Assembly (NCBI GenBank): GCA_022601135.1
Contig: JAHZJB010000043.1
Location: 20,075-84,074 of the forward strand
DNA length: 64,000 bases
Reading direction: 5' to 3'
Source: Actinomycetes bacterium
Lineage (GTDB): Bacteria > Actinomycetota > Actinomycetes > Mycobacteriales > Mycobacteriaceae
Shown: positions 35,901-53,581 of the stretch, in pieces
Layout: every line of letters begins with the position of its first letter
Position numbering within the stretch: the stretch's first letter is position 1
Program-made: the position numbers and the translations under genes
Notes under the pieces: model-generated
The model's database searches: none
What the model was told of the DNA's origin: nothing
The model's input: only the letters and a program-made list of their open reading frames with translations

Positions 35901-36503
35901 ATGCTGGGACTCTACGTGTCGGGGCATCCGCTCAACGGTATCGCCCACCTGCTGTCCACTCAGGTGGACACCGCTATCCCGGCGATCCTGGATGGTGACG
36001 TAGCCAACGACACTCAGGTTCGGGTCGGTGGCATCCTGGCGTCGGTGAATCGCCGGGTCAACAAGAACGGATTGCCTTGGGCCTCAGCGCAACTGGAGGA
36101 CCTCACCGGTGGCATCGAAGTGCTCTTCTTTCCGCAGACGTACGCGATGTTCGGCGCCGAGATCGCCGACGATGCCGTCGTGCTGCTGGGCGCCAAGGTA
36201 GCCATCCGGGATGACCGGATCTCGCTGATCGCCAACCAGCTTGTCGTGCCTGATTTCTCGAGTGCCCAGGTGAACCGGCCCGTTGCGCTGAGCCTGCCGA
36301 CGCGGCAATGCACCGTAGATAAGGTCAACGCGCTCAAGCAGGTGCTGACACGTCATCCGGGTACTGCCCAGGTGCATCTGCGGCTGATCAGCGGGGAGCG
36401 CATCACCACCCTCGAGTTGGATCAGTCGCTCCGGGTGACACCGTCTTCGGCGCTGATGGGTGATCTCAAGGAGTTGTTGGGTCCCGGCTGTCTCGGCGGA
36501 TGA
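32946..36503 (+). CDS. dnaE1: DNA polymerase III alpha subunit DnaE1
   Basis: PHP domain [44 protein letters not shown] fold; no intein; TAGACT -10 at 32931. Confidence 0.98.
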
Positions 36504-37708
36504 ACTCACCGCCGCCGGCGGGGCTGAGTGCGTGGCGGTTCGTCACCACCTTCGGCGTGATCAGCCTGCTGGCCGACATTGTCTACGAAGGTGCCCGGTC
36601 CATCACCGGGCCGTTGCTCGCCTCGTTGGGCGCCACCGCCGTCGTGGTGGGAATCGTCACCGGGGTGGGGGAGGCCGCGGCTCTCCTGCTGCGGATCGTC
36701 TCGGGCCCGCTGACCGACCGCACCGGCAGGTTCTGGACGTGGGCCATCGCCGGCTACTTCCTGACGGTGATTACCGTGCCGTTCCTGGGCGTCGTCGGCG
36801 TGTTGTGGGCGGCGGCCGCGCTGGTGATCGCCGAACGGGTCGGCAAGGCGGTGCGCAGTCCGGCCAAGGACACGCTGCTCTCGCACGCGGCCGCCGTCAC
36901 GGGTCGCGGCCGGGGTTTTGCCGTGCATGAGGCGATGGACCAGGTCGGGGCCGTTGCCGGACCTTTGGCGGTGGCGGCCATGCTGTTCGCCTTCGACGGC
37001 GATTTTGGGCCGCCCCTGGTGTTGTTGGCCATCCCGGGCGCGGGTGTCCTGATGCTGTTGCTGTGGTTGCGTGCCCGGGTACCCGAGCCGGCCCGTTACG
37101 AAGTGGAAGCCACGGCGTCGAGTGAACCTGCCGTCCCGCAAAGCTTCTTGCGGTCGCTACCCAGTTCGTTTTGGAAGTACGCCGGCTTCTCGGCGGCAAC
37201 CATGCTGGGATTCACCACATTCGGAGTGCTGTCCTTCCATCAGGTTCAGCAGGGAATCGTCCCGGTGGCGGTGGTGCCGGTGATCTATGCCGGTGCCATG
37301 GTTGCCGACGCCGGCGCGGCACTCATCAGCGGTTGGACCTATGACCGCATCGGTGCGCGAGTCCTCGGCGCGCTACCGGTGCTGGCCGGACTGGTGCCGG
37401 TATTGGCCTTCGCCGACCACATCGCACCAGTGGTTGTGGGGGCCCTGGTGTGGGGGGCGGCCGTCGGCATCCAGGAGTCGACGCTGCGCGCCGTCGTCGC
37501 CGATCTGGTTGGACCGGCTCGCCGGGCTACGGCCTATGGCGTCTACGCCGCGGTGATCGGGACCGCCGCCGCGGCCGGCGGAGCGCTGACCGGGTTGCTG
37601 TACTCGCATTCGGTGACACTGTTGATCGTGGTGGTACTCGTGGTCCAGGTCGCGGCGCTGGCTGGTCTGCAGTTGGTGCGTCTTCACGCCCGTCCGCCGG
37701 GCGGATGA
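36500..37708 (+). CDS. MFS transporter, substrate unknown
   Basis: ~12 hydrophobic segments, [10 protein letters not shown] and GWTYDRIG loop motifs, RSPAKDTLL; ATGA overlap with dnaE1. Confidence 0.88.
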
Positions 37709-37739
37709 TCCGGGAACCTCGCGTGCTGACTTCGGGAGC

Positions 37740-40700
37740 TCAATATCCGATCGAAATTCGCAGCTGGTCCGCCGGTTCGGTGTTGTTGAGGATCAGCACC
37801 GAACTTTGGTCATTGACGTCGTCGTAGGGAAACCCGTAGGCGAGTTGTTCGATGCCGATGTCGTGAAACAGCTTGGCCCAGGGGTTCCATCGCTGGCCGT
37901 CCGGATAGTAGGCGGCGACGTTGTTCCACTGCCCGGGAGTGTCCGCCACACCCCGGTTGAACGCCGCGTCGAGCTCGGCGAGGAACAGCACCTGTAGCCC
38001 GGCACCGGCGAACGGGCCGTCGGCGGCGAAGGTTTCCGCTGTCGTGGGTTTGGCCATGGTGTACGCGGTGGGCGCGCCGCCCGGTGGGGTCACGGTGTAT
38101 TCGAACAGTTGGGTGTCGGCGTTGACGCCGCCGCTGACCAGGTAGCCGGGGCCGTTGTGGGTGAATGTTTCGTTGGTGTACTTGTCCCAGAAGTCCCGGA
38201 TTGGTTCGTCGAGCCAACTGGCCACCGCGCCAGGCTGGGCCGTGCGCGGTGACAGCATCCGCAGCGGGTTGCCCGAGGCATCTCTGATGACCAGTGGCTG
38301 GAATGCCGCCGGAAGCGCTTGGGCGAAGGTGTTGAACACTTCGCTGCGCGCTGCCTCCAGGCCCCGGGTGGCCGAGAAGCCGCTGGCCGACTGCTCCAGG
38401 GTGAACGTGATCGGCACTGCGAACATGTCGACCTGGGTGGTGTTGGCGCCGAAAGCGACCCGGCCGTGGTCGTAGGTCAGCTCGAAGTAGTCGTACACCG
38501 TGTGATAGTTGGGATCGCGTTGATACGCCGGGTCGGGCCCGGCCCAGCTGGCGTTATCGGCGCCGATTCCGATGAACAAGGGCTGGCCCATCGAGACGTA
38601 CATTCGGGTGCCCTGTATCTCCGGTGGAACCCGCAGACCATCCGCGTCGGCGAGGCTGAATGACATGTTGGCGTAGTTGACCGAGTCCTTTGTCAGGTGG
38701 CCCGGGGCGTCGGCGGCGGTGTGGTCGAGTGGGTGAGCCACACCGGCGGCGTCGACCCACGACCAGGTCCCCGGCGGCGCCTGGCCGAGAATGGTCAGGA
38801 AGATTTCGTCGTCGCCGAAGGCGCCGCCGGTGTTGTTGACCAGAGTCACCGGGAAGGAGCCGGTCGGCGCATCTGGTGCCGGGGGAGGGGGCGGCGGGGG
38901 TTCTGGCACCGGACTTGAACCATCGCCATAGCCATAATCGCCGTAGACGTAGCGGGTACCGGCACCGAAAGTGTCCAGGAAGAAGGTCTCCACCGCGGGG
39001 TTTACTTCGACCCGTGAATCGCCCCATTCGGGACCCCATCCGTGCGCGGGCCAGTCGGAGTTGATGTAGGCCAGGGCCGCCACGTCGTACTGCTCGACCA
39101 CCTCATCCAGGCGGTCCAGGTACTCGATGAACAGGTTTGGATCGCCTGCAGCCGGATTCTGTGCCGTCGACTCGGCAATGACGATTTGGTGGCCCTGCGC
39201 TCGCGCAAAATCCATGGCCAAGGCAAGGTTTGGATCGATTCGCTGGCCCGGCGCATTGACGATTCCGTAGGCTTCCATGCCGACATCGTGGTTGAAGACC
39301 GAGAACCCGACCCAGTCGACGTTCTCCGGTCCGGGATAGAGCCACTGGGTGTCGTTCAGCCCCCGAACCGGGTGGAAGCCGAACTCTACGTTGTCGGCCT
39401 GGGATTCGATGCGATCGACGATGTGGTTGTAGGCGTCGATGAAGGCATAACGATCGAGTTCGGGATAGGCGTCAGGGTTGTCGAACACATTGATCCCCGA
39501 ATTCGCTTTCTCGGTGAGCCAGTCATTGATGTACTGCTCGCCGGTGTAGGCGAAAAGCGGCAGGCCGACCTCGTATCCGACGCGGAGCAGAAATTGAGTG
39601 TCGGGACGGCTTGCGATGATGTCGGCGAAACTGTCGATCTGATTGTCCCACATGCCGTTTCGGATGTCGTTGAGCGCTTCCCAGACCGCGTTGGAATTGT
39701 AGTCGGCCGCATTCGGATTGACCATCTGGCCGTATCCCCCGGCCGGGGTGTTGTCCTTGAGGCTCAGTGCGACCATGGCGTAGTCGCCGAGATCGTTGTC
39801 GCGGATGTAGTCCAAGAATTCGGCGTTCGGGCCGTCGTCACCCTGCTCGATCGTTCCCCAGTAGAAGGTCGAGTAGTGCGAGGATCCGGCCGGGGTCAGC
39901 CCGGTTCCCTCGATGAAGTCGGTGTATTCCTGCTGGAAGGTCTGCCCGACGAGCATCAACGTCGTGCCCCCAGCCAGGGCGCCGAGGGGAGCGGGCGCCG
40001 CACCGGGCTCCTGGGGGTCGTTGACCGGCGTGACGATGATGGTAACCGTGGCGGGGTCGCTGCTGGCCGTGCCGTCGGAGGCGGTGTAGGTGAATACGTC
40101 GGTACCGGCGAAGTTGGAGGTGGGGGTGTAGCTGAACACGCCGTCGGGGTTCAGGTTCACGCTGCCGTGGGCCGCGCCGGCGCCCAATGCGGCACTGAGC
40201 TTGTCGGCGTCGGCATCGGTGTCGTTGGCAAGCACGTTGCCCAATACCGGGGTGCCTTGGGCGGTGACGAAAGTGTCGTCGCGGGCGACCGGTGGGGTGC
40301 CGGCGGGGGGTGGCACCGTGGGGGGTGGCACCGTGGGGGGTGGTGTGTAGGTCCTGCCCTCGGCCCCGTCTGGTGCTGGACCGGAGACGACGACACCGTC
40401 AACACCGTCGGTGCCGCCGGTGCCCGCCGTGCCGCCCGGGCCCGCGTTACCTGAAGCGCCGCCGGCGCCTCCCCGTCCGCCCATCGGATTCGCGGCGTCG
40501 CCATCGGCGCCGTCACCGCCGCGGCCGCCCGCACCGCCATCACCTCCGGACCCTCCGTTGCCACCGCGGCCGAACCAGCCACCCGAACCGCCGTCCCCGC
40601 CGGCCCCACCGGAACCGCCGCGGGTGCCGTCAGCACCCGCTGCACCTGGAATGGCGGCAGCTGTGCCGTCGATGCCGTCCGCCCCGTTGCCACCAGCGCC

Positions 40701-41675
40701 GCCGTCACCGCCGTTGCCCGCGAAAAAGCCTGCATCGCCGCCGGTTCCGCCATGTCCACCGTTGCCACCAGGGGCCATCGCAGCGCCGCCGGCCCCGCCC
40801 TTCCCGCCGTTGCCGAAGAACAGCCCGCCGTTGCCGCCCCGGCCGCCGTTGAAGCCATCACCACCATTGCCGAACCAGCCGGCGGAGCCGCCGTGACAGA
40901 CCCTGCCACCGGTGCAGGTGGTCGCGTCCCAACTGAATCCGTTGCCCCACAACAACCCTGCATCGGGATGCTCGGCGGTCCCATGGCCAAACAGCCAGAC
41001 GCTGGTGTCAGCGCCAAGGCCGACCTCACGGCGCACATACGCCGCGGCCGCCCAGTTGAGCGGGTCTGCGACCGGAGCGGCCGGAACGTCATCGGAAGTC
41101 TGGCTTGCGGACCCGCCGGCCGAACGCGCCGCGCGGACCGGGGCGGCGGCCTGCGTCGGTTCGGCTGACGGCACGTCCGGCTCGGCGGTGCTCGAAGCGC
41201 CCGGGTCAACAACTTCCGCCGGCGCGACATCGGCGGCAAGAAGCCTGTCATTATCGCTGCCAACCGAAGCCGAAGGGCTCACGTGCTCCTCTGGACTCCC
41301 ATCGGCCTCCTCTGAAAGATCGGAGAGTTCGTCGATCGCCTCGACCGCTGGATCGGGGTCTTGTTCCGAATCCAGTTCATCCGAGGCCGGCGCTGGCGAG
41401 TCCTCCAGTTCTGACGTTGCGGCTGCGGTCTTCTCGATCGTGTGGCCGGTACTCGACGGCCCCGGCCGCGACGTCGGTTCTGACTTGGTCTCCACTGCCG
41501 GCGAATTCGAACTACCCGAGTCGGTGGCGTCGGCAAACGCCACTGCCGGCAGGCAGGCGATCGCCATGCCGACGCCCAGGGCGACCGCGAGCCCGCCAAT
41601 CCGGCCCACATAGCGCGAACAACCCGATGCCGGCCGCGTGGCTACCGGCGATGACACCTCGACTGGGCGAAACAT
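37740..41675 (-). CDS. Secreted modular glycanase: signal peptide - acidic linker - PGRS-like Gly repeats - Ig/cadherin-like - GH26 (beta-1,3-xylanase-like) - GH64 (beta-1,3-glucanase)
   Basis: YVGRIGGLAVALGVG...AVAFA signal; GGxGGxGG repeats; PVARDDT...VLANDTD...GVFSYTP..F.GTDVFTY (Ig-like); LRVGYEV, YPG..VDWVGFS, IAEST, YINSDW, WGDSRV (GH26); VTLVNNT, DYFELT, NTTQVDMF, AYGFPYDDV (GH64). Confidence 0.85.
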   Translation of the reverse strand: MFRPVEVSSPVATRPASGCSRYVGRIGGLAVALGVGMAIACLPAVAFADATDSGSSNSPAVETKSEPTSRPGPSSTGHTIEKTAAATSELEDSPAPASDELDSEQDPDPAVEAIDELSDLSEEADGSPEEHVSPSASVGSDNDRLLAADVAPAEVVDPGASSTAEPDVPSAEPTQAAAPVRAARSAGGSASQTSDDVPAAPVADPLNWAAAAYVRREVGLGADTSVWLFGHGTAEHPDAGLLWGNGFSWDATTCTGGRVCHGGSAGWFGNGGDGFNGGRGGNGGLFFGNGGKGGAGGAAMAPGGNGGHGGTGGDAGFFAGNGGDGGAGGNGADGIDGTAAAIPGAAGADGTRGGSGGAGGDGGSGGWFGRGGNGGSGGDGGAGGRGGDGADGDAANPMGGRGGAGGASGNAGPGGTAGTGGTDGVDGVVVSGPAPDGAEGRTYTPPPTVPPPTVPPPAGTPPVARDDTFVTAQGTPVLGNVLANDTDADADKLSAALGAGAAHGSVNLNPDGVFSYTPTSNFAGTDVFTYTASDGTASSDPATVTIIVTPVNDPQEPGAAPAPLGALAGGTTLMLVGQTFQQEYTDFIEGTGLTPAGSSHYSTFYWGTIEQGDDGPNAEFLDYIRDNDLGDYAMVALSLKDNTPAGGYGQMVNPNAADYNSNAVWEALNDIRNGMWDNQIDSFADIIASRPDTQFLLRVGYEVGLPLFAYTGEQYINDWLTEKANSGINVFDNPDAYPELDRYAFIDAYNHIVDRIESQADNVEFGFHPVRGLNDTQWLYPGPENVDWVGFSVFNHDVGMEAYGIVNAPGQRIDPNLALAMDFARAQGHQIVIAESTAQNPAAGDPNLFIEYLDRLDEVVEQYDVAALAYINSDWPAHGWGPEWGDSRVEVNPAVETFFLDTFGAGTRYVYGDYGYGDGSSPVPEPPPPPPPAPDAPTGSFPVTLVNNTGGAFGDDEIFLTILGQAPPGTWSWVDAAGVAHPLDHTAADAPGHLTKDSVNYANMSFSLADADGLRVPPEIQGTRMYVSMGQPLFIGIGADNASWAGPDPAYQRDPNYHTVYDYFELTYDHGRVAFGANTTQVDMFAVPITFTLEQSASGFSATRGLEAARSEVFNTFAQALPAAFQPLVIRDASGNPLRMLSPRTAQPGAVASWLDEPIRDFWDKYTNETFTHNGPGYLVSGGVNADTQLFEYTVTPPGGAPTAYTMAKPTTAETFAADGPFAGAGLQVLFLAELDAAFNRGVADTPGQWNNVAAYYPDGQRWNPWAKLFHDIGIEQLAYGFPYDDVNDQSSVLILNNTEPADQLRISIGY
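40305..40346. repeat. 15-bp tandem repeat encoding a Pro-rich linker (TPPPTVPPPTVPPP)
   Basis: GGGGGGTGGCACCGT x2 plus a partial copy, between the Gly-rich and Ig-like parts. Confidence 0.85.
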
Positions 41676-41732
41676 TCGACCATCACAGCAACCCTCAGTG
41701 ATTCAGTCCAGCGATTAATTATGATCGTTTTC

Positions 41733-41747
41733 ATCTGATTTTTTGAT
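41733..41747. promoter_or_regulatory. LysR-type recognition box (ATC-N9-GAT)
   Basis: ATCTGATTTTTTGAT in the AT-rich 85-bp divergent intergenic region; fits the T-N11-A LTTR consensus. Confidence 0.55.
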
Positions 41748-41760
41748 AACGTACCCGAGG

Positions 41761-42702
41761 ATGGAACTTCGTCAGCTTGAGTACTTCATCGCTGCGGCCA
41801 GTGAGTTGAACTTCTCCCGGGCGGCACAACAGGTCCATGTTGTCCAGTCTGCGCTATCCGCTTCAGTGGCCAAGCTGGAAAAAGAACTCGGAGTCGAACT
41901 GTTCGATCGATCCCGACAGCAGATCCAGATCACTCCGGCCGGTGAATTGTTCCGCGACCATGCACGCCGCGTGATCCATGCGGCGCGACTGGCGAAGGAC
42001 TCGATCAGCGACTACCGCGGTGAGCTGTCCGGCATCGTCGAATTCGGATCACTTGCCTCGTTCAGCACCCTGGATGTGCCCGGAATCCTCGGAGAATTTC
42101 ACCGCGACTATCCACTCGTCCGGATCAGGCTGCGCAACAGCCTGGCCGGACGGGGGGCGCACCTGGCCGCGGTCGCCGATGGTTCACTGGACCTGGCGTT
42201 GGTATCGGCGCCGGATCGCTTCCCCGCCAACCTCGAGATGCGCCTGCTGACAGAGGAACCGATGCTCTTCGTCTGTCGGCACGACCACCACCTTGCTCAG
42301 CGGGACCAGATAGAACTCAGCGAACTCGCCGAGGAAGACCTCCTCGGTTTTCCCTCCGACGTCGGACTGCGGCGCGTGGTCGAGAATGCCTTCAGCGCAT
42401 CAGGTATCACGCCCCGCAATCCCTACGAAGTGCCCGTCGACTTCTCGGTTGCGGCCCGCTTGGTGCGGCATGGGCTTGGAAGTATCTTCATGCCCGCCAG
42501 CGAAACCAGCCGTTTCCCCGATCTGCGGGCGGTACCCGTAGCTCCGGCAGTGCGTTGGACGATCTTCCTTGCCTGGCCCAAGCATGAGCACATGGGACCC
42601 GCCGGCGCGAAGTTCGCCGAGTTGTTACTCGCGGCCGCCGCCGGGGCTGGAAACGGTCATGAAGAGTCGTCGCAGAATCTTCGGCCAAGAGCTGACCGAT
42701 AA
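41761..42702 (+). CDS. LysR-family transcriptional regulator
   Basis: MELRQLEYFIAAASELNFSRAA...VVQSALS...LEKELGVELFDRS...ITPAG, followed by a substrate-binding domain. Confidence 0.96.
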   Translation: MELRQLEYFIAAASELNFSRAAQQVHVVQSALSASVAKLEKELGVELFDRSRQQIQITPAGELFRDHARRVIHAARLAKDSISDYRGELSGIVEFGSLASFSTLDVPGILGEFHRDYPLVRIRLRNSLAGRGAHLAAVADGSLDLALVSAPDRFPANLEMRLLTEEPMLFVCRHDHHLAQRDQIELSELAEEDLLGFPSDVGLRRVVENAFSASGITPRNPYEVPVDFSVAARLVRHGLGSIFMPASETSRFPDLRAVPVAPAVRWTIFLAWPKHEHMGPAGAKFAELLLAAAAGAGNGHEESSQNLRPRADR

Positions 42703-42718
42703 CACAAGTACCGCCCGC

Positions 42719-42736
42719 CCAACACCCCCGTGTTGG
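42719..42736 (+). terminator. Possible hairpin downstream of the LysR gene
   Basis: CCAACAC-cccc-GTGTTGG, 16 nt after the stop; no U-tract, which is common in mycobacteria. Confidence 0.35.
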
Positions 42737-42902
42737 TGAAACCAGCCCGAAAGACGCGGGAACCGACGTTCACACCGCACCCGCGGCCGGACCCGACGAC
42801 GCCCGAGAAGGGCGGTGCCGAACACTCAACCACGTTGTTCGACACGCTTTAGATAGACTTCGGCCGTTCCCGGCCCGTAACGCGTCGGCTCCAGGAGGCC
42901 TC

Positions 42903-44030
42903 CTGATCACGCTATGCTCCGCCGACCGCGGACCCGATCCCGCCGTGCTGCACGCTCCGGGCGGATTCACCTGGTTCTATGTCGACCTGGTCGATGACCG
43001 GGGCCGCGGCGCCACCCTGATCTGGTCGTGGGGGCTGCCCTTCCTTCCGGGCTACGCGCGCTCATCCCGTATCGGCCGCCCGCAGTTGCCGATCAACCGT
43101 CCCAGCGTCAATCTGGTCGTCTACGAGGGTGGGCGCGAGCGGTTCTACCTGTTGTCCGAGTTCGCCCCCGATCAATGCTCCTGGAGCCCGGACAGCCGAT
43201 CCTGGCAGCTCGGCGACTGCAGGTTTACCTGCACCGACACCCCGTCCCCCGCGGGTGACGCTCCGACTCGTGCGTTAAGGGCCGATCTCGACCTTGCGCT
43301 GCCCACCGGCGGCCGGGCCACCGGTCAGCTACGGCTCTCCGGCCCGCTGCGCCGTGACCCGCCCAGGGCCGCCGGGCCCGCCGGTCCGACCGGGGCGCAC
43401 GTGTGGACGCCGATGATCGCCGCCAGCCGGGGTGGTCTTCACCTGCAGATCCCCGGTGGCGACTTTCGGGTCGAGGGCCGCGTCTATCACGACCGCAACA
43501 GCGCCACCCGGCCGCTACATGACCTCGGCGTGCAGAGTTGGTTGTGGGGCCGACTCGCGCTGCCGGGCCGAGACCTTGTTTTTTATCGACTTGTCCCGTC
43601 GGCACCCGGGGAGCTGCCACGGGATCTTGTCGTCGAGATCGCCGCCGACGGCAGCTCCCGGCTGTGTGATGATCCCGGTCTTGAGGTGGGCGGCCTGCGC
43701 CGCAGCCTCTGGGGACTGCCGTGGCCGGTTAGCGTCACTTTCGCCGACCCAGACGGCCGCCCGGTGTCGGCGGAAGTCAGTGCCGTGCTCGACAACGGAC
43801 CGTTCTATCAGCGCTATCTGCTGCGCGGTCGGTGCGGCGCGCAACAGGGGTACGGCGTGGGGGAGAACCTGGTGCCGGACCGGGTCGACTCCGACCTGCT
43901 GCGGCCCCTGGTACGGATGCGGGTCCACCGTGCCGGCGGGCCGAACTCGATGTGGCTGCCGCTGTTCTCCGGTGATAGCGACGGCCGGTGGGCCAGACTG
44001 ATCGGCCGTTCGGGCCCCGTGCGGGTATGA
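42903..44030 (+). CDS. crtC: Carotenoid 1,2-hydratase (CrtC-like); probable CTG start at 42903, first canonical start GTG 42945
   Basis: PGGFTWFYVDLVDDRGRGATLI...SVNLVVYE, YHDRNSATRPL...WLWGR and LDNGPFY parallel CrtC motifs (GGY.WWY.D, YHD.N.G..PL, .EDTPFY). AGGAGG RBS at 42893-42898. Confidence 0.72.
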   Translation: MITLCSADRGPDPAVLHAPGGFTWFYVDLVDDRGRGATLIWSWGLPFLPGYARSSRIGRPQLPINRPSVNLVVYEGGRERFYLLSEFAPDQCSWSPDSRSWQLGDCRFTCTDTPSPAGDAPTRALRADLDLALPTGGRATGQLRLSGPLRRDPPRAAGPAGPTGAHVWTPMIAASRGGLHLQIPGGDFRVEGRVYHDRNSATRPLHDLGVQSWLWGRLALPGRDLVFYRLVPSAPGELPRDLVVEIAADGSSRLCDDPGLEVGGLRRSLWGLPWPVSVTFADPDGRPVSAEVSAVLDNGPFYQRYLLRGRCGAQQGYGVGENLVPDRVDSDLLRPLVRMRVHRAGGPNSMWLPLFSGDSDGRWARLIGRSGPVRV

Positions 44031-45253
44031 GCCACGAGCTGTCGGTTGGCGCCCTGGTCGACGGATCCGCTCCGCTGTGGGCCCAGGTGGCGGCCGCCCT
44101 GTTGGCCCTGCCCGCCTTGCCTGGGCTTGGCCTGGTGGCGTTCAACGCGCTGTATTGGACCCGCGGCCGGCCGCTGCCGGCGGCCGCCCTGGCCGCACCC
44201 GGAGGGGTCAGTGTCCTGATACCGGCCCGCGACGAAGTGCACAACATCGAGGCCTGCGTACGGGCGGCCGACGGTGCCCGCGGTCCGATCACCGAGATCA
44301 TCGTCTACGACGACTGCTCCACCGATGGTACCGGCGAGTTGCTCGCGAGGTTGCAGGCTGAACTGCCCCGACTCCGGGTGATCGGCGGGGACGGCCTGCC
44401 GCCGGGCTGGGTCGGCAAACCGCACGCCCTGCACCGGCTCACCGCCGCGTCGGGCGGCGAACTGCTACTCAACATCGATGCCGATGTCATCTTGCGTCCC
44501 GACGGTGTGCTGCGCATGCTCTCGCTGCTCGGCCCGGCCGACCAGGTGCCCGGCGGACTCGGTGCCGCGTTGGTCACCGCGGTACCCCGCCAGCGAACCG
44601 GTAGTTTCGCCGAACGGTTGATGATCCCGCTGCTGCACCTGTCCTATGTGGCCTGGTTGCCGATGCCGCTGATCCACCGCACCCGCGACCCGCGGGTGCT
44701 GGCGGCGAACGGCCAGCTGCTTCTGATCCGGCGGTCGGCGCTGGCCGCGGCGGGCGGCTGGGCGCGGGTGCGTACCGCGCTGGTGGACGATATGGCCGTG
44801 TGCCGCGCGGTGAAACAGAGCGGCGGGCGGGTCGTTTTCGCCGACGGCGACCAGGTGGCTGACTGCCGGATGTACGGCGACGGGGCATCTCTGTGGCGGG
44901 GGTTTTCGAAGAACTTCTACGAGGGTATCGGCGGTCACCCGCTGGCGCTGATCCTCGTGCTGATGCTGCACCTGCTGGTGTTCGTCCTACCATTCGTCGC
45001 CCTTCCGATCGCTGCGCTGTCGGGCGCCGGGGGGCTGGCGGCGGCCGCTGCGGTCGGCGTGGGCGCCAACCTGGCACTGCGTCTGATCATGGCGCTGCGC
45101 TACGGCCACAGTCCGGTTAGTGTGCTCCTGCACCCGCTGGCCGTGGCGCTGATGATGGGTGTCCTGCTGAACAGCTTCCGGTGCAGCCGGCGCGGTGATA
45201 TTCGTTGGCGCGGTCGCACCTATGCCGCCCGCGCCCAGCGGGAGGCGGTGTGA
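44027..45253 (+). CDS. GT2 glycosyltransferase, carotenoid glucosyltransferase type (CruC/CrtQ-like)
   Basis: VSVLIPARDE, YDDCSTDGT, PPGWVGKPHAL, IDADV, ANGQLLL, LVDDMA, CRMY...WRGFSKN; C-terminal TMs; ATGA-coupled to crtC. Confidence 0.85.
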   Translation: MSHELSVGALVDGSAPLWAQVAAALLALPALPGLGLVAFNALYWTRGRPLPAAALAAPGGVSVLIPARDEVHNIEACVRAADGARGPITEIIVYDDCSTDGTGELLARLQAELPRLRVIGGDGLPPGWVGKPHALHRLTAASGGELLLNIDADVILRPDGVLRMLSLLGPADQVPGGLGAALVTAVPRQRTGSFAERLMIPLLHLSYVAWLPMPLIHRTRDPRVLAANGQLLLIRRSALAAAGGWARVRTALVDDMAVCRAVKQSGGRVVFADGDQVADCRMYGDGASLWRGFSKNFYEGIGGHPLALILVLMLHLLVFVLPFVALPIAALSGAGGLAAAAAVGVGANLALRLIMALRYGHSPVSVLLHPLAVALMMGVLLNSFRCSRRGDIRWRGRTYAARAQREAV

Positions 45254-46063
45254 ACCCCGCCCCGGACCCCGGATCACCCGCGGACCGCGGGGCTGACCGG
45301 CAGGCGCTGGACCGGGCCGGGGACACCAGACACCCGGCCTTTCTTCGTGTGGCGCGCCCCTACGCCCGCCACCGGGTGGCCCGCGGGCTGGACGGTTTGT
45401 GGGTGGCTGGACTTGACCGCGCGCGTGCCACGCTGGCCGACCGGCCGGTGCTGTTCGCCTCCAATCATGTCGCTTGGTGGGACGCCCTGCTTCTGGCGCT
45501 ACTCGATGAGGCCCTCGGCGGTACGGGGTGGGCGGTGATGGACGCGGTGAACCTGGGCAAACTGCCCTTCCTCGGCTGGGTTGGGGCGCTGCCGCTGGAC
45601 CGCAGCAGCCCCGAACGCAGCCGGGAATGCCTGCGGAACTCGGCGGCTCTGCTTGACCGGCCCGGCCGCGGTGTGTGGATCTTCCCGCAAGGGCCGCCAA
45701 CGTCCGCCCCACCTGCGGCCGCTGGATCTCAAGGGCGGTATCGCGGTCATGCACGGACACAGCCCGGTGGACGTCATCGTCGCATGCATCGACTACGTGT
45801 TTCTGGAGCGGGACCGCCCGGCGGCGCTCGTCCGCTTCGGTCCGCCGCTGCCCGGGGCGGCGGTCGCCGGGCAGGCCCTGCTGCCGGCTGTCGAGACGGC
45901 GCTGCTGGAGGGTCTGGCTGCGATTGATATCGCCGCGGTGGCGGCGACCGACGGGCGCCGGGCCCGCACCCACCCCCAGGACCCGCTGCCCGGGTTCGTC
46001 CCGCTGGTGCGGCCCGGGGGGATCCTCCGGACCATCCGCCGCCGGAGATCGCATGCCTACTGA
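45250..46063 (+). pseudogene. Lysophospholipid-type acyltransferase (CruD-like), interrupted by a +1 frameshift at ~45691-45693
   Basis: First frame: ASNHVAWWD (HxxxxD) ... WIFPQG. The +1 frame continues RQRPPHLRPLDLKGGI...DYVFLERDRPAALVRFG and ends at 46063, overlapping the next start. Confidence 0.8.
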
Positions 46064-47555
46064 GCGCGGTGCGGAGATCCTGGTGCTCGGTGCCGGCATC
46101 GGTGGTCTGGCCGCCGCCCTGGCGTTATCCGCCCGCGGATTGCCCGTGCGGGTGATCGAGGCCGGCGCAAGACCGGGTGGTAAGGCCGGCATCGTTGAGT
46201 TGGACGGGGTGGTGGTCGACACCGGCCCGAGCGTGCTGACACTGCCGGAGGTCTTCGCCGGGCTGTTCGCCCGTGCCGGGCTGCGGCTGGACGAGGTGAT
46301 CGGCCTGCGCCGTCTCGACCCGGGTTTTCGTTACCGCTGGTCTGATGGTTGCGTGCTGGACGTGGCCCACGACCCGGACCGCACGCTCGCCAACATCCGA
46401 TCGGTTCTCGGACCGAGTGCGGAGGCTGAACTGGCGGCCTTCCTGGCCTACAGCCGCCGGATCTGGGAGGCGGCGGCGCCGAACTTCGTCCTCGGTCCGG
46501 CCCCCACCTGGTCAGCGATGTTCGCCCTGGCCCTGCGCCGCCCGCGGGCTCTGGCCGCAGTCGACCCGCTGCACAGCATGGTCGGTGGTATCGACCGACA
46601 CGTTCGAGAGCCGCACCTGCGGATGTTGTTGCGTCGCTACGCGACCTATAACGGCAGCGACCCCCGGCAAGCGCCGGCCACGTTGAACTGTATTGCGCAC
46701 GTGGAGCTTTCCCTCGGCGGGTATGGCGTGCAGGGTGGAATGTACGCGCTGGTCACCGCGCTGGTCGCCGCCATCGAGGCCCGCGGCGGGGTGATCGAAT
46801 GCGGGATACCGGTCGAACGGGTTCTGGTGGAGGGGAATTCGGTCGTCGGGCTGGCCCTGACCGATGGGGGGCAGCGGCGCGGCCGGGCAGTTGTGGTGAA
46901 CGCCGATGTTGGATGGCTGCGCGACGCCGGGCTGCCGGCGGCCGGGCGTCACCTTCCGGCCGCGGCGGCGTCGATGTCCGGGTGGAATGGGGTACTGCGG
47001 GCTGCCCGGCGGCCGGGCCGGGTGGCTCATGAGGTGCTGTTTCCGGACGACTATGACGCTGAGTTCTCCGATATCTTCGACTATGACCGGCCACCGGCGA
47101 CGCCGACGGTCTACCTCTGCGCCCAGGAACTCTGCCATGGGCGGGCGGGTTGGACCGACGACGAGCCGGTCTTCGTGATGGCCAATGCACCGGCCGAACC
47201 GGCTGGCGCTCAGCGGGATTCGGAAATGTGGGACGCCGTCGAAGCTGCAGTGACACAGCGAATCCGCGCAGCCGGATTGTGGTCGGACGGCGATGCGCTG
47301 GTTTGGCGCCGTAGTCCGGCGGAGTTGGCCGCCGCCTTCCCTGGCAGCCGCGGGGCCATCTACGGCGCGGCCAGTAACGACCGGTTCGCCGCCTTCAAGC
47401 GTCCGCCCAATCGGCTGGCCGGTGTGCCCGGTCTGTACCTCGCCTCGGGAAGTGCCCACCCGGGCGGGGGACTGCCGATGGTGGCCCTGTCCGGGCTGGC
47501 TGCCGCGGACAGTCTGCTCACCGACCAGTCGGTCAGCCTCCCACAGACCCGGTGA
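46053..47555 (+). CDS. Phytoene-desaturase-family carotenoid oxidoreductase (CrtD / CrtP-like)
   Basis: VLGAGIGGLAAA, DTGPSVLTLP, RYATYNGSDP.QAPATL..IAHVE, GGMYAL, GAIYG, GLYLASGSAHPGGGLPMVALSG; start ATG 46053. Confidence 0.88.
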   Translation: MPTERGAEILVLGAGIGGLAAALALSARGLPVRVIEAGARPGGKAGIVELDGVVVDTGPSVLTLPEVFAGLFARAGLRLDEVIGLRRLDPGFRYRWSDGCVLDVAHDPDRTLANIRSVLGPSAEAELAAFLAYSRRIWEAAAPNFVLGPAPTWSAMFALALRRPRALAAVDPLHSMVGGIDRHVREPHLRMLLRRYATYNGSDPRQAPATLNCIAHVELSLGGYGVQGGMYALVTALVAAIEARGGVIECGIPVERVLVEGNSVVGLALTDGGQRRGRAVVVNADVGWLRDAGLPAAGRHLPAAAASMSGWNGVLRAARRPGRVAHEVLFPDDYDAEFSDIFDYDRPPATPTVYLCAQELCHGRAGWTDDEPVFVMANAPAEPAGAQRDSEMWDAVEAAVTQRIRAAGLWSDGDALVWRRSPAELAAAFPGSRGAIYGAASNDRFAAFKRPPNRLAGVPGLYLASGSAHPGGGLPMVALSGLAAADSLLTDQSVSLPQTR

Positions 47556-49533: not shown

Positions 49534-51273
49534 TCACATGCTCAGTTTCGACCGGAGAATCGCGACAGAATGGCCTGCCAGACGCGTTACGGCAGTGCCC
49601 ACCTCGGCTTCACCCCACGTCAGCACCACCTCACCGGTGCCCATGATGTCGACTGGCTCTTGGCCGAGGTTGCACAATATCGACAGCGATCCGCGGTACA
49701 TGACGAACCATCGACGATCCTCGTCGTAATCGATCCGCAGGTGATCCAGCCACGGATCGCCGAGCTCAGGCTCGTTGCGGCGCAGGGCGATGAGGTCTCG
49801 GTAGAAGTCCCGCAGCCGTGCATGCTCCCCATCGCCGACCTCTGCCCAGTTCAGCTTCGACCGCTCGAACGTCGCAGGGTCCTGCGGGTCGGGTATGTCG
49901 TCGGCGTTCCAGCCGTGTTCGGCGAATTCCCGCTTGCGACCCTCGGCGGTTGCACGGGCCAATTCCGGCTCGGGGTGGGAACTGAAGAACTGAAACGGTG
50001 ACGACGATCCCCACTCCTCACCCATGAAAAGCATGGCTGAATAGGGGGATCCCAATACGAGCGCGGCTTTGATCGCGAGCTGGCCGGTGGTGAGGTTCTG
50101 CGACGGCCGGTCGCCGATCGCCCGGTTTCCGACCTGATCATGGGTCAGCGTGTACGCCAGCAGCCTGGTCGCCGGTATCGTGGCGGTATCGAGAGGCCGT
50201 CCGTGCCGCCGGTGCCGGAAAGACGAGTAGGTCCCGGCGTGGAAGTAGCCGTGCCGCAATGTTTGGGCAAGTGCCGCCAGAGTGCCGAAATCGCAGTAGT
50301 AGCCCTGACGTTCGCCGGACACAGCGGAGTGGATCGCGTGGTGGATGTCATCGTCCCATTGCGCGGTCATGCCCAGGCCGCCGCGGTCCCGTGCAGTGAT
50401 CAGCCTGGGATCATTCAGGTCGCTCTCGGCGACTAGGGCGAGCGGCCGCCCGAGTTCTGCTGCCAGAGAATCGGTTTCGGCACTAAGCTCCTCGAGGATA
50501 TGGTAGGCGGTGGTGTCGACGAGGGCGTGGACCGCATCCAGCCGCAGGCCGTCCGCGTGGAATTCACGCATCCAGCGAAGCGCACAGTCCACGATATGGC
50601 GTCGCACCGAGTCGGCGCCCGCACCGCAGATGTTGATCGACTCGCCCCACGGGTTACTCCCGGACGACAGGTAGGGCCCGAACCTCGGCAAGTAGTTGCC
50701 GGACGGGCCGAGATGGTTGAACACCGCGTCGATCAACACGCCGAGCCCGTGAGCATGGCAGGCGTCGATGAACCGGACGAGACCGTCCGGGCCGCCATAG
50801 GGCTCGTGCACCGCGTACCAGAGCACGCCGTCATAGCCCCAACCGTGCGTGCCGCTGAACGCGTTGATCGGCATCAGTTCGACGAAGTCGATACCCAGGT
50901 CGACCAGATAGTCGAGTCTTTCGATCGCGGCCGGCAATGTTCCTTCGGCGGTGAAGGTTCCGACGTGCAACTCATAGATCACCGAGCCGTGGATGGATCG
51001 ACCCTGCCAGTCATCGTCGGTCCAGCAGCCTGGCTGCGGCCGCCACAGTTGGGACCGTTCGTGAACACCGCCGGGTTGGCGCGGGGAGCGGGGGTCCGGC
51101 AGCACCTGGGGGTCATTGTCCAGGACGAAGCCGTAACGGGTGTCGGATGCGACGTCGACCACGGTGTGCCACCACGCGTCATCGCCGCGTGTCATCGAGT
51201 GCTGTGTTCCGTCGATGTCCAGGCGGACGCGGTTGGGGCGTGGCGCCCAGACGGCGAACTCGTGCTCAGGCAT
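49534..51273 (-). CDS. treZ: Malto-oligosyltrehalose trehalohydrolase TreZ
   Basis: FAVWAP, IYELHVGTFT, WGYDGV, DGLRLDAVHAL, VAESDLND, HDQVGNR, LFMGEEW. Confidence 0.97.
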   Translation of the reverse strand: MPEHEFAVWAPRPNRVRLDIDGTQHSMTRGDDAWWHTVVDVASDTRYGFVLDNDPQVLPDPRSPRQPGGVHERSQLWRPQPGCWTDDDWQGRSIHGSVIYELHVGTFTAEGTLPAAIERLDYLVDLGIDFVELMPINAFSGTHGWGYDGVLWYAVHEPYGGPDGLVRFIDACHAHGLGVLIDAVFNHLGPSGNYLPRFGPYLSSGSNPWGESINICGAGADSVRRHIVDCALRWMREFHADGLRLDAVHALVDTTAYHILEELSAETDSLAAELGRPLALVAESDLNDPRLITARDRGGLGMTAQWDDDIHHAIHSAVSGERQGYYCDFGTLAALAQTLRHGYFHAGTYSSFRHRRHGRPLDTATIPATRLLAYTLTHDQVGNRAIGDRPSQNLTTGQLAIKAALVLGSPYSAMLFMGEEWGSSSPFQFFSSHPEPELARATAEGRKREFAEHGWNADDIPDPQDPATFERSKLNWAEVGDGEHARLRDFYRDLIALRRNEPELGDPWLDHLRIDYDEDRRWFVMYRGSLSILCNLGQEPVDIMGTGEVVLTWGEAEVGTAVTRLAGHSVAILRSKLSM

Positions 51274-53578
51274 CGGCACGCGCCAGCAATGCGACGGGCA
51301 GCGCATCGAACAAGTCGCCGGCTGGCACCCGGCCGCTGTAGGTGGTGCCGGTCAGCACGTCAGTCCAGGCTCCGTCCGGAACTGTGAGTGTGGTGTCGCC
51401 CCAGCCGCTTTCGGCCAGCCGGACCGTCCAGCGGCTGACCGCAGCCAGGACGGCGTCGCCTCGCAGAAAGGACACGATGTGCGTGTCGGCCACACCGTCG
51501 GCCAGGACCGGCCGGTATTCGCCGGTCAGGAAAGCAGCGGGTCGCTCGCGTCGTAGTCGAAGCGCCGCCTGCACAACCCGGAACTTGGGGTGCGCAGTTG
51601 TCGCCGGGCGAGTGAGCGCCAACAGCTCGTCGCGCCGCGCGGAGTAGTCGACCGGACGCCGATTGTCCGGATCGACCAGGCTGTCCTCCCAGAGTTCGGT
51701 GCCCTGATAGACATCCGGAACCCCCGGAGCGGTCAGCGCAATGAGCTTCTGGCCCAGTGCGTCGGACTGCGCGTGCTGGTCCAGTCGCGCGACGGCAGCG
51801 GTCAACTCGGCTGCGACGGGACCGTCGATCACCGCGTCCAGCCACCGGTGGACCGCGGTCTCGAACTCTGCGACCGGATCGTTCCACGTGGTGTGCACCG
51901 CGGCCTCCCGGATGGCCTTCTCAGCGTAGCTGTGTAAACGCTCCCGAAGTCCGGTGTTCACCGTGCCTTGCCTCGGCCACACTCCGAAGATGTTCTGCCA
52001 CAGAAACAACCCGGTGAGCGGATCGGGAGACGGGGTAATGCGCTCCCAGCCGCGTACGAGTCCGGCCCACACTGTCGGGACCTGCGACAGCACCCCTATT
52101 CGTGCCCGGACGTCCTCTCCGCGCTTGGTGTCGTGGGTGGTCAAGGTCGTCATGGAATAGGGCCACCGGGCCGCGCGGTCGGCCGCGCGGCGGTGAAATT
52201 CCGCGGCGCTGACACCGAAATATTCAGGCGCGCCACCCACTTCGTTCAGTGACACCAGCCGGGCATCACGGTAGAACAGGCAGTCCTCTATTGCCTTGGC
52301 GCTGGCGGCTCCGCACAACTGTTGCAGCCGCACGCCCACCTCGGCCCGCGACGCCATCGCTGTCGTGAGAAGGGCGAGTGGTTCGGCGAGCTCTGCGTCC
52401 CGGGCCGTGGTTTCCGCGATGGCGACGGGCTGCACAGCAGTCAGTGTCAGGTAGTCCGATCGGTAGACACCGATATGGCTCAATAGTGCGGCCACCGCTT
52501 CGGGAAGTCGTTCGTGGTCGCGACCGGTCGCCGCGACCACGGCCCGGCACAGCCGCCGCAGCTCACTGGCCAGAGTGTCGGTGACGGCCCGGACCTTCAG
52601 TCCCCGCGCGATCTCCGGCGTCGCGTTATGGTTCGCACCCGCCGCGTCGACCAGCTCGGTCAGTGCGTCGACACCGGTGGGGTCGATGAAGAGCCCACCG
52701 ATCTCGCGCAGGGCGTCGTACCCGGTGGTGCCCGCCACCGGCAGGCTCGGGTCCAGTGGCTCGTCGACGGCGAGGATCTTCTCGATCACGATCCACGCCT
52801 CCGGGCCGGTGAGTTCGCGCAGCCGCGCCAGATACCCTGCGGGATCGGATAAACCGTCCGGGTGGTCGATACGGATTCCGTCGACCAGGTTCTCGGCGAA
52901 CCAACGACCAACTTCGGTATGGGTGGCGTCGAACACGGTGCGGTCCTCCTGGCGCAGGCCTGCCAGTGAGGTGATCGAGAAAAACCGCCGGTAGCCGCAG
53001 CTGCCAGTGCGCCAGCCGACGAGCTTGTAGTGCTGCCGACTGTGAACTTCGGCTCCGGTCCCCTCGCCGGTCCCCGGACAGATCGGGTATTCCAGGGCGC
53101 CGAGCCGCAGCAGGTCGCCATCGACTGCCAGATCGGCCGCATCGTCGTCAGAACCCAGTACGGGCAGGATGATTCGGCCTTCGGGGTCGGCATTCCAGTC
53201 GATGTCAAAGTACTCGGCGTAGGCTGACTTCCGGCCGTGAGTCAGCACGTCCCACCACCACGGGTTCTGGCGGGGGGCGTCGACACCGACGTGGTTGGGC
53301 ACGATATCGACAATGAGGCCGATGTCACGACTTCGCGCCGCGTCCGCCAGGCTCTGGAAGCCCTCGGCCCCACCGAGTTCGGCGGACACCGTGGTGGGGT
53401 CGGTGACGTCGTAGCCGTGGCTGGAGCCTTTGGCGGCGGTGAGGATGGGGGACAGGTAGAGGTGTGAGACGCCGAGTCCGGCGAAGTAGTCGATCAGCTT
53501 CTCGGCGTCGGCAAAGGTGAACGCCTCGCCGCTGGACGGACCACGCATCTGCAGCCGGTAGGTGGAAAGAATGCGCAT
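51266..53578 (-). CDS. treY: Malto-oligosyltrehalose synthase TreY
   Basis: STYRLQ, GSSHGYDV, DIVPNH, YRRFF, GIRIDHPDGL, IEKIL, THDTKRGEDVRAR, SLVDPDNRRPVD. Confidence 0.97.
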   Translation of the reverse strand: MRILSTYRLQMRGPSSGEAFTFADAEKLIDYFAGLGVSHLYLSPILTAAKGSSHGYDVTDPTTVSAELGGAEGFQSLADAARSRDIGLIVDIVPNHVGVDAPRQNPWWWDVLTHGRKSAYAEYFDIDWNADPEGRIILPVLGSDDDAADLAVDGDLLRLGALEYPICPGTGEGTGAEVHSRQHYKLVGWRTGSCGYRRFFSITSLAGLRQEDRTVFDATHTEVGRWFAENLVDGIRIDHPDGLSDPAGYLARLRELTGPEAWIVIEKILAVDEPLDPSLPVAGTTGYDALREIGGLFIDPTGVDALTELVDAAGANHNATPEIARGLKVRAVTDTLASELRRLCRAVVAATGRDHERLPEAVAALLSHIGVYRSDYLTLTAVQPVAIAETTARDAELAEPLALLTTAMASRAEVGVRLQQLCGAASAKAIEDCLFYRDARLVSLNEVGGAPEYFGVSAAEFHRRAADRAARWPYSMTTLTTHDTKRGEDVRARIGVLSQVPTVWAGLVRGWERITPSPDPLTGLFLWQNIFGVWPRQGTVNTGLRERLHSYAEKAIREAAVHTTWNDPVAEFETAVHRWLDAVIDGPVAAELTAAVARLDQHAQSDALGQKLIALTAPGVPDVYQGTELWEDSLVDPDNRRPVDYSARRDELLALTRPATTAHPKFRVVQAALRLRRERPAAFLTGEYRPVLADGVADTHIVSFLRGDAVLAAVSRWTVRLAESGWGDTTLTVPDGAWTDVLTGTTYSGRVPAGDLFDALPVALLARADA

Positions 53579-53581
53579 GTC

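Follow-up and report, generated by a model that had tools for sequence, protein, structure and literature searches.

The characterised enzymes closest to the protein described here belong to two glycoside hydrolase (GH) families. In GH26 they are the endo-beta-1,3-xylanase Xyl4 of Vibrio sp. AX-4 and the mixed-linkage xylanase (MLXase) AlXyn26A of Algibacter. Their catalytic glutamates have been reported (PMC11611983, PMC10470212), as have the substrate-contact residues Gln43, Tyr146, Phe215, Trp285 and Trp299 of AlXyn26A (PMC10470212). The beta-1,3-xylan of Caulerpa contains glucose, and a GH26 beta-1,3-xylanase cleaves Glc-beta1,3-Xyl (PMC13351767). The carbohydrate-binding module (CBM) that anchors classical beta-1,3-xylanases is CBM31, whose characterised members bind insoluble beta-1,3-xylan according to the part of PMC9638140 that cites Okazaki 2002. 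One of the 47 known beta-1,3-xylan loci is actinobacterial (PMC12125979). In GH64, the laminaripentaose-producing enzyme LPHase uses Glu154 as acid and Asp170 as base in an inverting mechanism, as stated in the section of PMC4758615 that cites Wu et al. 2009, and an in-silico survey of 2016 predicted LPHase (GH64) domains in PE proteins (PMC4758615). Here we describe a gene in a 64,000-nucleotide stretch of mycobacterial DNA (contig JAHZJB010000043.1; hereafter the window) that joins a GH26-like and a GH64 module in one reading frame. As a whole, we favour the view, which we hold to be moderately probable, that its product is a secreted two-module enzyme for beta-1,3-linked glycans.

Two glycoside hydrolase modules in one reading frame

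The gene is a single open reading frame (ORF) of 1311 codons with an ATG start, laid out as follows in window coordinates.

37740..41675, minus strand: whole ORF, with signal peptide, acidic region, Gly-rich PGRS-like region, Big_9, GH26-like and GH64 modules (orthologs in L001-L004; metagenome tiling)
41532..41675, minus strand: predicted Sec-type signal peptide, residues 1-48, ...RYVGRIGGLAVALGVGMAIACLPAVAFA-DATDS (read by eye)
41061..41531, minus strand: acidic Ser/Thr/Pro/Ala-rich low-complexity region, residues 49-205, 22% Asp plus Glu (composition)
40356..41060, minus strand: Gly-rich PGRS-like repeat region, residues 206-440, 40% Gly (sub-cutoff Pfam PGRS match)
40302..40355, minus strand: Pro/Thr linker, residues 441-458 (composition)
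40029..40301, minus strand: Big_9 or bacterial cadherin-like Ig domain, residues 459-549 (Pfam PF17963, E 2.1e-22; PF17892; PF17803)
38931..39980, minus strand: divergent GH26-family (beta/alpha)8 catalytic module, residues ~566-915 (model, Foldseek, homolog profile)
39567..39587, minus strand: motif LRVGYEV, residues 697-703
39570..39572, minus strand: Glu702, predicted acid/base
Residues 780-794, minus strand: motif YPGPENVDWVGFSVF
Residues 823-837, minus strand: motif FARAQGHQIVIAEST
39171..39173, minus strand: Glu835, predicted nucleophile
Residues 870-875, minus strand: motif YINSDW
Residues 884-889, minus strand: motif WGDSRV
38871..38930, minus strand: Pro-rich linker between the catalytic modules, residues 916-935 (composition)
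37743..38870, minus strand: GH64 endo-beta-1,3-glucanase module, residues 936-1311 (Pfam PF16483)
Residues 1062-1067, minus strand: motif DYFELT
38481..38483, minus strand: Glu1065 in DYFELT, predicted general acid (alignment)
Residues 1078-1085, minus strand: motif NTTQVDMF
38427..38429, minus strand: Asp1083 in NTTQVD, predicted general base (alignment)
Residues 1280-1287, minus strand: motif YGFPYDDV

The isolated GH26-like module gives no Pfam or NCBIfam match at all, including none to the Pfam GH26 entry PF02156 even at E<=10, and its best PDB match by phmmer is AlXyn26A at E 0.15; the family was therefore assigned by way of homolog profiles and a structure model. An initial homolog search returned 35 proteins, many of them with a Pfam GH26 match and four with CBM31. 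The profile built from 30 homologs of the module (A1) ranked Xyl4 (2ddx, 3.1e-14) and AlXyn26A (7xjr, 3.5e-13) first among PDB chains, followed by the lichenase CtLic26A (2.6e-7) and by mannanases at E of at least 2e-4. The AF2 model computed on the homolog alignment is a (beta/alpha)8 barrel (pLDDT 94.2, pTM 0.92), and Foldseek searches with it again placed 2ddx (3e-15) and 7xjr (5.9e-15) ahead of lichenases (~5e-13) and mannanases (1e-10 to 1e-8), and ranks 1-27 were all taken by GH26 entries or by fusion constructs of which CtLic26A (Endoglucanase H) is a part. This is a ranking of PDB chains, as distinct from a phylogeny with characterised enzymes.

The two catalytic glutamates can be located in this barrel. 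Glu702 (in GYEV, just after strand beta4) and Glu835 (in IAEST, on strand beta7) are invariant in the 30 homologs; they align with Glu138 and Glu234 of Xyl4 (E116 and E212 in 2ddx) and with Glu147 and Glu243 of AlXyn26A, the latter being the residue mutated in 7xs3. In the segment numbering of the model, a strand at 135-140 is followed by Glu143 (Glu702), and a strand at 271-277 contains Glu276 (Glu835). The five contact residues of AlXyn26A listed above align, in the same order, with the conserved Gln578, Tyr701, Phe794, Trp875 and Trp884, while Gln839 corresponds to a Gln of Xyl4 as against Arg247 in AlXyn26A. Likewise, in the alignment to 2ddx, LRVGYEV, IAESTAQ and YINSDW..WGDSRV pair with LRWAYEV, LNESTPQ and YINADW..WGDSRV (signatures RxxYEV, ESTPQ and YINxDW...WGDSRV). 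We conclude that the module is GH26 in the broad sense and forms part of a separate, uncharacterised clade. It would be a retaining endo-glycanase in which Glu702 is the acid/base and Glu835 the nucleophile, and because of its place in that clade its substrate has to be inferred.

Judged by sequence, the assignment of the second module to GH64 is unambiguous. At 208 bits, where the cutoff is 27, and E 3.1e-61, the PF16483 match spans residues 940-1298 and positions 2-362 of the 370 in the profile, and among PDB entries the module matches 5h4e (1.7e-45), 5h9x (PbBgl64A), 9vp9 and 3gd0 (LPHase, 1.9e-13). Glu1065 aligns with the Glu that Ala replaces in 5h9y, the structure of an inactive mutant (compare 5h9x), and Asp1083 with the Asp of NTTRVD in 5h4e, 9vp9 and 5h9x. 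The spacing of the pair is 16 after a 2-residue insertion, as for Glu154 and Asp170 of LPHase. The module is thus predicted to be an inverting endo-beta-1,3-glucanase, acting on laminarin, callose-type or fungal-wall beta-1,3-glucan. The two modules would be independent catalytic units on a Pro-rich linker, and may act in synergy.

These results bear out much of an initial annotation, made from the letters of the window, that had described one 1311-residue ORF with two GH domains. The ORF and all the motifs it quoted are present. Its domain limits (~39970-38945 and ~38856-37743, i.e., residues ~569-911 and ~940-1311) fit the modelled barrel and the Pfam GH64 envelope, and the matches are far beyond chance. 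The xylanase motifs it had listed (LRWAYEV, WWPG..YVDWVG, LFLNESTPQ and YINADW..WGDSRV) are truly found in Vibrio Xyl4, by alignment to 2ddx. It had also placed the first domain nearer to beta-1,3-xylanases than to mannanases, in agreement with the order obtained by profile and by Foldseek, and had regarded both GH26 glutamates and the GH64 Glu/Asp pair as kept, as the alignments confirm.

Substrate of the GH26-like module

An exhaustive profile search shows the clade to be sizeable, with 130 representatives (50% clustering) at E<=1e-30 and 836 at E<=1e-10. Among the top 70 members, 45 match PF02156 at E<=1e-5 (27-64% identity to the module), 15 carry type IX secretion tails, 8 CBM31, 3 CBM56, 2 CBM6 and 2 GH64, the last two being mycobacterial. 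A larger set comprised 181 proteins in which a GH26-like domain matches the A1 profile (the window protein and its orthologs, the initial homologs and the profile-search representatives); here CBM31 occurs in 13 and CBM56 in 3, and GH64 is confined to the mycobacterial group. Two members are annotated as coming from unexpected hosts, namely P0003 from Synechococcus sp. UW179A (63% identity, partial) and P0032 from the fungus Xylaria sp. FL1777 (37%), through either assembly contamination or further transfers.

The partners of clade members recur across phyla. In the Pirellulales metagenome-assembled genome (MAG) BS30m-G48 (L006:5577-12023), a 2148-residue protein joins DUF1996, a GH26-like module (73% identity), PL14 and GH81. 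Elsewhere a GH81 protein immediately precedes a member with CBM31 (L016), another member follows CBM56 proteins (L015), and a third is found with GH16 and GH43 (L017). In the Actinomycetes MAG O_S4.2_bin.18 (L004:6537-11642), the 1701-residue ortholog of the window protein has an additional module of ~310 residues between its GH26-like and GH64 modules; this is GH17-like by its PDB match (6fcg, E 5e-7), with Pfam GH17 below cutoff, such that three beta-1,3-glycan-type modules appear to be combined in one protein. Given this recurrence of CBM31 and of beta-1,3-glucanase partners, the clade is most simply understood as acting on beta-1,3-linked glycans of algal walls that occur with, or contain, beta-1,3-glucose. 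This agrees with the glucose content of Caulerpa beta-1,3-xylan and with the cleavage of Glc-beta1,3-Xyl by a GH26 beta-1,3-xylanase (PMC13351767). For the window module the most likely substrate would be beta-1,3-xylan, or a beta-1,3-(gluco)xylan with glucose in it, from green or red algae. Specificity for beta-1,3-xylan itself is a hypothesis that we hold with slightly more confidence than doubt. More tentatively, and with the balance of our judgement against it, the clade may represent a new specificity class within or beside GH26, that is, endo-glycanases that work obligatorily with beta-1,3-glucanases and are specialised for beta-1,3-xylan containing glucose, or for some other hybrid beta-1,3-glycan. 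Such a class would explain why members have independently become fused to, or clustered with, GH64, GH81, GH17, GH16, CBM56 and CBM31 in unrelated phyla.

Several observations, to which the missing direct Pfam match of the module belongs, weigh against the reading of the protein as a secreted enzyme for beta-1,3-xylan as well as beta-1,3-glucan. In structural alignments to Xyl4 and AlXyn26A, identity is 16-18% and the TM-score 0.63-0.73, and this identity is far below the >35% that is the experimentally validated criterion for calling a beta-1,3-xylanase (PMC12125979); the kinship proposed by the initial annotation thus holds as GH26 relatedness, and not as closeness to the characterised beta-1,3-xylanases. 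The loop after beta3 has ~30 residues, far more than its counterpart in the two solved xylanases, and in the alignment a gap stands opposite Trp296 of AlXyn26A, so the shape of the active site may differ. The window protein has no CBM31 by Pfam. The partner domains are mostly glucan-directed and fit a glucan as well as a xylan substrate. As a test of substrate, the gene neighbourhoods of clade members are mixed: glucan-type in L015-L017, uninformative in L014, and mannan-type around P0006 (54% identity; L018), which adjoins genes for a GH5 mannosidase, phosphomannose isomerase, a ROK kinase and an epimerase. Within the 64-kb window there is no gene for a xylosidase (GH3/GH43), xylose isomerase or xylulokinase. 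Cleavage of the signal peptide was judged by eye alone, and no evidence of expression as RNA or protein was found, no RNA run containing the sequence. As regards origin, the neighbour-joining (NJ) tree of 110 domains used below has no support values and most clade members are without known taxonomy; a dip in GC to 0.61 at 39000-39999 was rejected as a sign of horizontal transfer, being due to amino-acid composition (GC2 0.39, with a host-like GC3 of 0.80).

Of the competing explanations, the one that survives best is that the GH26-like module is a glucanase for beta-1,3- or mixed-linkage beta-1,3/1,4-glucan, like CtLic26A; we consider this unlikely, albeit with a weight that cannot be neglected. 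The protein would then be an all-glucan machine in which a retaining and an inverting beta-1,3-glucanase give different product profiles. It would account for a clade that is fused or adjacent to the beta-1,3-glucan modules GH64, GH17-like, GH81, GH16 and CBM56; moreover, GH26 lichenases are the next-best structural matches (~5e-13), and a GH26 beta-1,3-xylanase already accepts glucose at its cleavage site (PMC13351767). Both xylanase groups, however, outrank the lichenase by sequence and by structure. The module also has the Tyr-Glu acid/base motif and the C-terminal WGDSRV, as in Xyl4, whereas mannanases and lichenases generally have His-Glu at the motif position. Furthermore, the commonest CBM of the clade is CBM31, a binder of beta-1,3-xylan in the part of PMC9638140 concerned with it, and the characterised GH26 beta-1,3-xylanases do not hydrolyse laminarin (PMC11611983).

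A beta-1,4-mannanase, directed at algal mannans (e.g., of Codium or Porphyra walls) while the second module degrades glucan, is in our view improbable. GH26 is mainly a mannanase family, and the surroundings of P0006 are of the type expected under this explanation. Yet mannanases are the weakest of the GH26 matches, both with the profile and with the fold, and they align over the beta5-beta7 part only; none of the top 70 clade members was seen to carry a mannan-binding CBM, and the remaining contexts suggest beta-1,3-glycans.

Very improbable, in turn, is that one or both modules are non-catalytic remnants with a binding or structural role, despite the precedent of Rv0315, an inactive GH16-like beta-1,3-glucanase homolog of M. 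tuberculosis (PMC4606783). All four catalytic residues are kept, and the GH26-like pair is invariant in the clade. In comparisons with L001, L003 and L004, dN/dS is 0.064-0.067 (about 0.065) for the GH26-like module, the most constrained part of the protein (89-94% amino-acid identity), and 0.13-0.20 for GH64, below the values of the non-catalytic parts, which are ~0.33 for Big_9 and 0.35-0.45 for the signal peptide and acidic region. These low ratios indicate that selection maintains both catalytic modules.

Finally, that the fusion is an artefact of MAG mis-assembly, or of a frameshift hiding two genes, has a negligible probability even though the window derives from metagenomic data with a repetitive Gly-rich region and many alternative contig joints, since depth is even in three runs, single unitigs cross the junctions, and the frame and domain order are common to L001, L002, L003 and L004, all mycobacterial MAGs, and to two further cluster representatives. 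Specifically, contigs from three independent sponge-metagenome runs tile positions 36500-42800 at even depths of ~660x, ~210-310x and ~15x; the unitig 37462-39290 spans the GH26/GH64 junction, and the unitig 39414-42018 runs from the GH26 module, over Big_9 and the Gly-rich and N-terminal parts, to a point upstream of the start codon. The alternative joints and loose ends, dozens in number, lie at 40243-40850, in the coding sequence of the PGRS-like region, and presumably come from paralogous Gly-rich genes, many of them in the same genome; the number of Gly-rich repeats in the window could be mis-assembled or variable. Three substitutions in the acidic N-terminal region (C>T at 41150, T>A at 41152 and T>A at 41161) are fixed in all three sponge runs, which shows that the populations sampled there differ from the window at strain level. 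A lookup of public assemblies returned no record of the exact protein sequence of the window.

Export, host and regulation

The N-terminus has the features of a Sec-type signal peptide, i.e., a basic n-region, the hydrophobic stretch GLAVALGVGMAIACLPAVAFA and an A-x-A site with predicted cleavage at AFA-D, before DATDS. Read in the same way, by eye, the n, h and c regions and the AFA-D site are kept in the L003 and L004 orthologs. Export by the Tat pathway was rejected for want of a twin-Arg, and a lipoprotein was rejected as well: the Cys of the signal peptide is Ser in the L003 and L004 orthologs, which makes a lipobox unlikely. In residues 1-462 there is no match to the PE domain (PF00934), even at E<=10. 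The PE domain goes with type VII (ESX) secretion in mycobacteria. With a predicted Sec-type signal peptide in place of a PE domain, the glycanase would use Sec and not the PE-dependent route to be expected for the PE-PGRS-GH64 proteins, and the peptide would be cleaved upon export.

The remainder of the N-terminal half resembles a stalk. The acidic region is the least conserved part of the protein (45-58% identity among orthologs). The Gly-rich region matches Pfam PGRS (PF21526, residues 230-284) at 17-18 bits, below the cutoff of 27, and is 41% identical to the PGRS part of P0055, a PE-PGRS-GH64 protein of M. spongiae; the Big_9 region has in addition an NCBIfam tandem-95 repeat match, below cutoff. 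Together, the acidic and PGRS-like stalk and Big_9 probably serve as a spacer or surface tether. Homologs or paralogs of the N-terminal ~250 residues (34-59% identical), covering the signal peptide, the acidic region and the first portion of the Gly-rich region, were observed on other proteins in Mycobacterium and Mycolicibacterium MAGs, some from activated sludge (L008, L010-L013); in L010 the ORF has 579 residues and no Pfam domain. Secreted mycobacterial proteins may reuse this segment as a leader and stalk module that lacks PE. The initial annotation had likewise called the enzyme exported, for which the signal peptide now offers a predicted route; it had missed this peptide, together with the PGRS-like region, the Big_9/cadherin-like domain, the LysR partner described below and the sponge origin.

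As to the host, 93-99% of sampled window 31-mers are present in the three sponge-metagenome runs, and the DnaE1 encoded in the window shares ~92% identity with those of Mycolicibacterium poriferae, M. chubuense and M. litorale, and 95% with a metagenomic protein. We therefore conclude that the host is an uncultured mycobacterium of fast-grower type from a marine sponge. The k-mer depth of ~660x at 36500-42800 in run X1 suggests that the organism was abundant in that sample.

The window is a piece of core mycobacterial chromosome, with acn (aconitase), a gene for a RipA-like NlpC/P60 protein, ferrochelatase, mutAB-meaB, ileS, dinX, ansA, a pseudouridine synthase gene, dnaE1, ilvA, treZ-treY-treX and bioA/F/B. 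No xylan-utilisation locus was seen around the glycanase gene. On one side lies a gene for a transporter of the MFS type, coupled to dnaE1, a flank common only to the closest relative (L001); on the other side lie the following features.

41676..41742, no strand: divergent intergenic region of 67 bp (from coordinates), which presumably holds the promoters and a LysR operator
41743..42702, plus strand: LysR-family regulator gene (Pfam HTH_1 and LysR_substrate), divergent from the glycanase gene

An ortholog of the LysR gene (~82% identity) lies divergently upstream of the glycanase gene in L002, L003, L004 and L008. Because this pairing is kept while the other flank differs, the two genes look like a conserved unit, and the LysR protein is likely to be a dedicated regulator that controls expression of the glycanase. 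Downstream of the LysR gene, at 42945-47555 on the plus strand, are a 361-residue ORF with no Pfam match, a GT2 glycosyltransferase gene and a gene for a 626-residue flavin amine-oxidase-type protein, in a region with GC of 0.70-0.73 against a window mean of 0.66. At 49534-55747 on the minus strand, three consecutive alpha-amylase-family genes have the order of the mycobacterial treZ-treY-treX (glgX) trehalose pathway, i.e., core metabolism.

Origin of the fusion and comparison with known enzymes

GH64 domains occur commonly in Mycobacterium and in Mycolicibacterium, where the usual arrangement is PE-PGRS-GH64 or Big_9-GH64 (in M. marinum, M. ulcerans, M. spongiae, M. paragordonae, M. intermedium, Mycolicibacterium psychrotolerans and others), and the closest relatives of the window GH64 module (57-63% identity) are mycobacterial Big_9-GH64 and PE-(PGRS)-GH64 proteins. 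In the nearest of them (59-62% identity), Big_9 is followed directly by GH64, with no GH26 module between. In the NJ tree, the GH64-fused mycobacterial copies (window, L001-L004, P0170 and P0171) form one group, whose sister is L005, a stand-alone copy of 414 residues with 80% identity, found in a Mycolicibacterium MAG; the Planctomycetota proteins P0007, L006 and L007 (73-79% identity) follow, and the whole is nested in a marine radiation whose proteins are largely of Bacteroidota type, several of them bearing CBM31. The L005 protein (MAG CSMAG_925, L005:77-1321) has no GH64 module and no obvious signal peptide; it could be the module in its unfused state, or else a piece of what was ancestrally acquired.

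The nesting in the tree and the Big_9-GH64 arrangement of the relatives suggest one acquisition from marine bacteria, followed by insertion between Big_9 and GH64. That is, the scaffold of GH64, PGRS-like region and Big_9 would be native to mycobacteria, and the GH26-like module was most likely gained once, by horizontal transfer from marine Planctomycetota or Bacteroidota. The host-like GC3 of 0.80 indicates that this transfer was not recent or that the sequence has since ameliorated. The GH17-like module of the L004 ortholog would be a further addition in that relative.

The initial annotation had stated that no such enzyme was described in mycobacteria. For the GH64 half this does not stand, the domain being widespread there and its presence predicted in 2016 (PMC4758615). 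For the GH26-like module and the GH26-GH64 fusion, which are apparently undescribed, it does: in the literature we found no report of a GH26-GH64 fusion or of GH26 in sponge mycobacteria. What is new comprises the divergent GH26 clade as such, its occurrence in mycobacteria, and the joining of its module to GH64, with a GH17-like module besides in one relative. Multi-catalytic glycanases and horizontal transfer of carbohydrate-active enzymes are well known, and the finding leaves basic concepts unchanged. Its interest lies in a sizeable uncharacterised clade whose domain partners provide a testable substrate hypothesis, and in an apparent case of niche adaptation by domain insertion, in which sponge mycobacteria extended a genus-typical GH64 scaffold with a marine-type module. 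If the clade is indeed a new specificity class, its capture by sponge mycobacteria would mark an ecological shift to feeding on algal cell walls inside the sponge. The fused glycanases may also be of practical interest for the saccharification of green- and red-algal biomass.

Xyl4 (2ddx/3vpl; EC 3.2.1.32) is the best match of the GH26-like module by profile (3e-14) and by fold (3e-15), with which it shares the barrel, the glutamates on beta4 and beta7, the Tyr-Glu acid/base motif, ESTxQ and YINxDW...WGDSRV. The TM-score is ~0.63-0.69, the beta3 loop of the module being much longer and its beta8 loop shorter than in Xyl4. Xyl4 carries CBM31, as do relatives in the clade, whereas the window protein has neither CBM31 nor CBM6; also unlike Xyl4, the window protein is fused to GH64 and encoded by an actinobacterium, with no adjacent locus for xylosidase or xylose catabolism. 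AlXyn26A (7xjr/7xs3) is the second-best match by profile and fold and has the highest TM-score, 0.73, at 16-17% identity; the lid loops that form its MLX tunnel are not kept in length.

The solved GH64 enzymes are like the second module in family and in their catalytic Glu/Asp pair, from which action as an inverting endo-beta-1,3-glucanase would be expected. They are ~40% or less identical to it, and in the window protein the module is the C-terminal part of a chain of 1311 residues. The Pirellulales protein of L006 resembles the window protein in that a member of the same GH26-like clade is fused to an endo-beta-1,3-glucanase in a giant secreted protein; it differs in having GH81 in place of GH64, in its additional PL14 and DUF1996, and in its phylum, and the two fusions arose independently. 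The PE-PGRS-GH64 and Big_9-GH64 proteins of other mycobacteria share with the window protein a Gly-rich PGRS-like region, Big_9, or both, N-terminal to GH64. They are ~430-660 residues long, with one catalytic module and in many cases an N-terminal PE domain, whereas the window protein has a predicted Sec-type signal peptide in place of PE and an additional, 350-residue GH26-like module.

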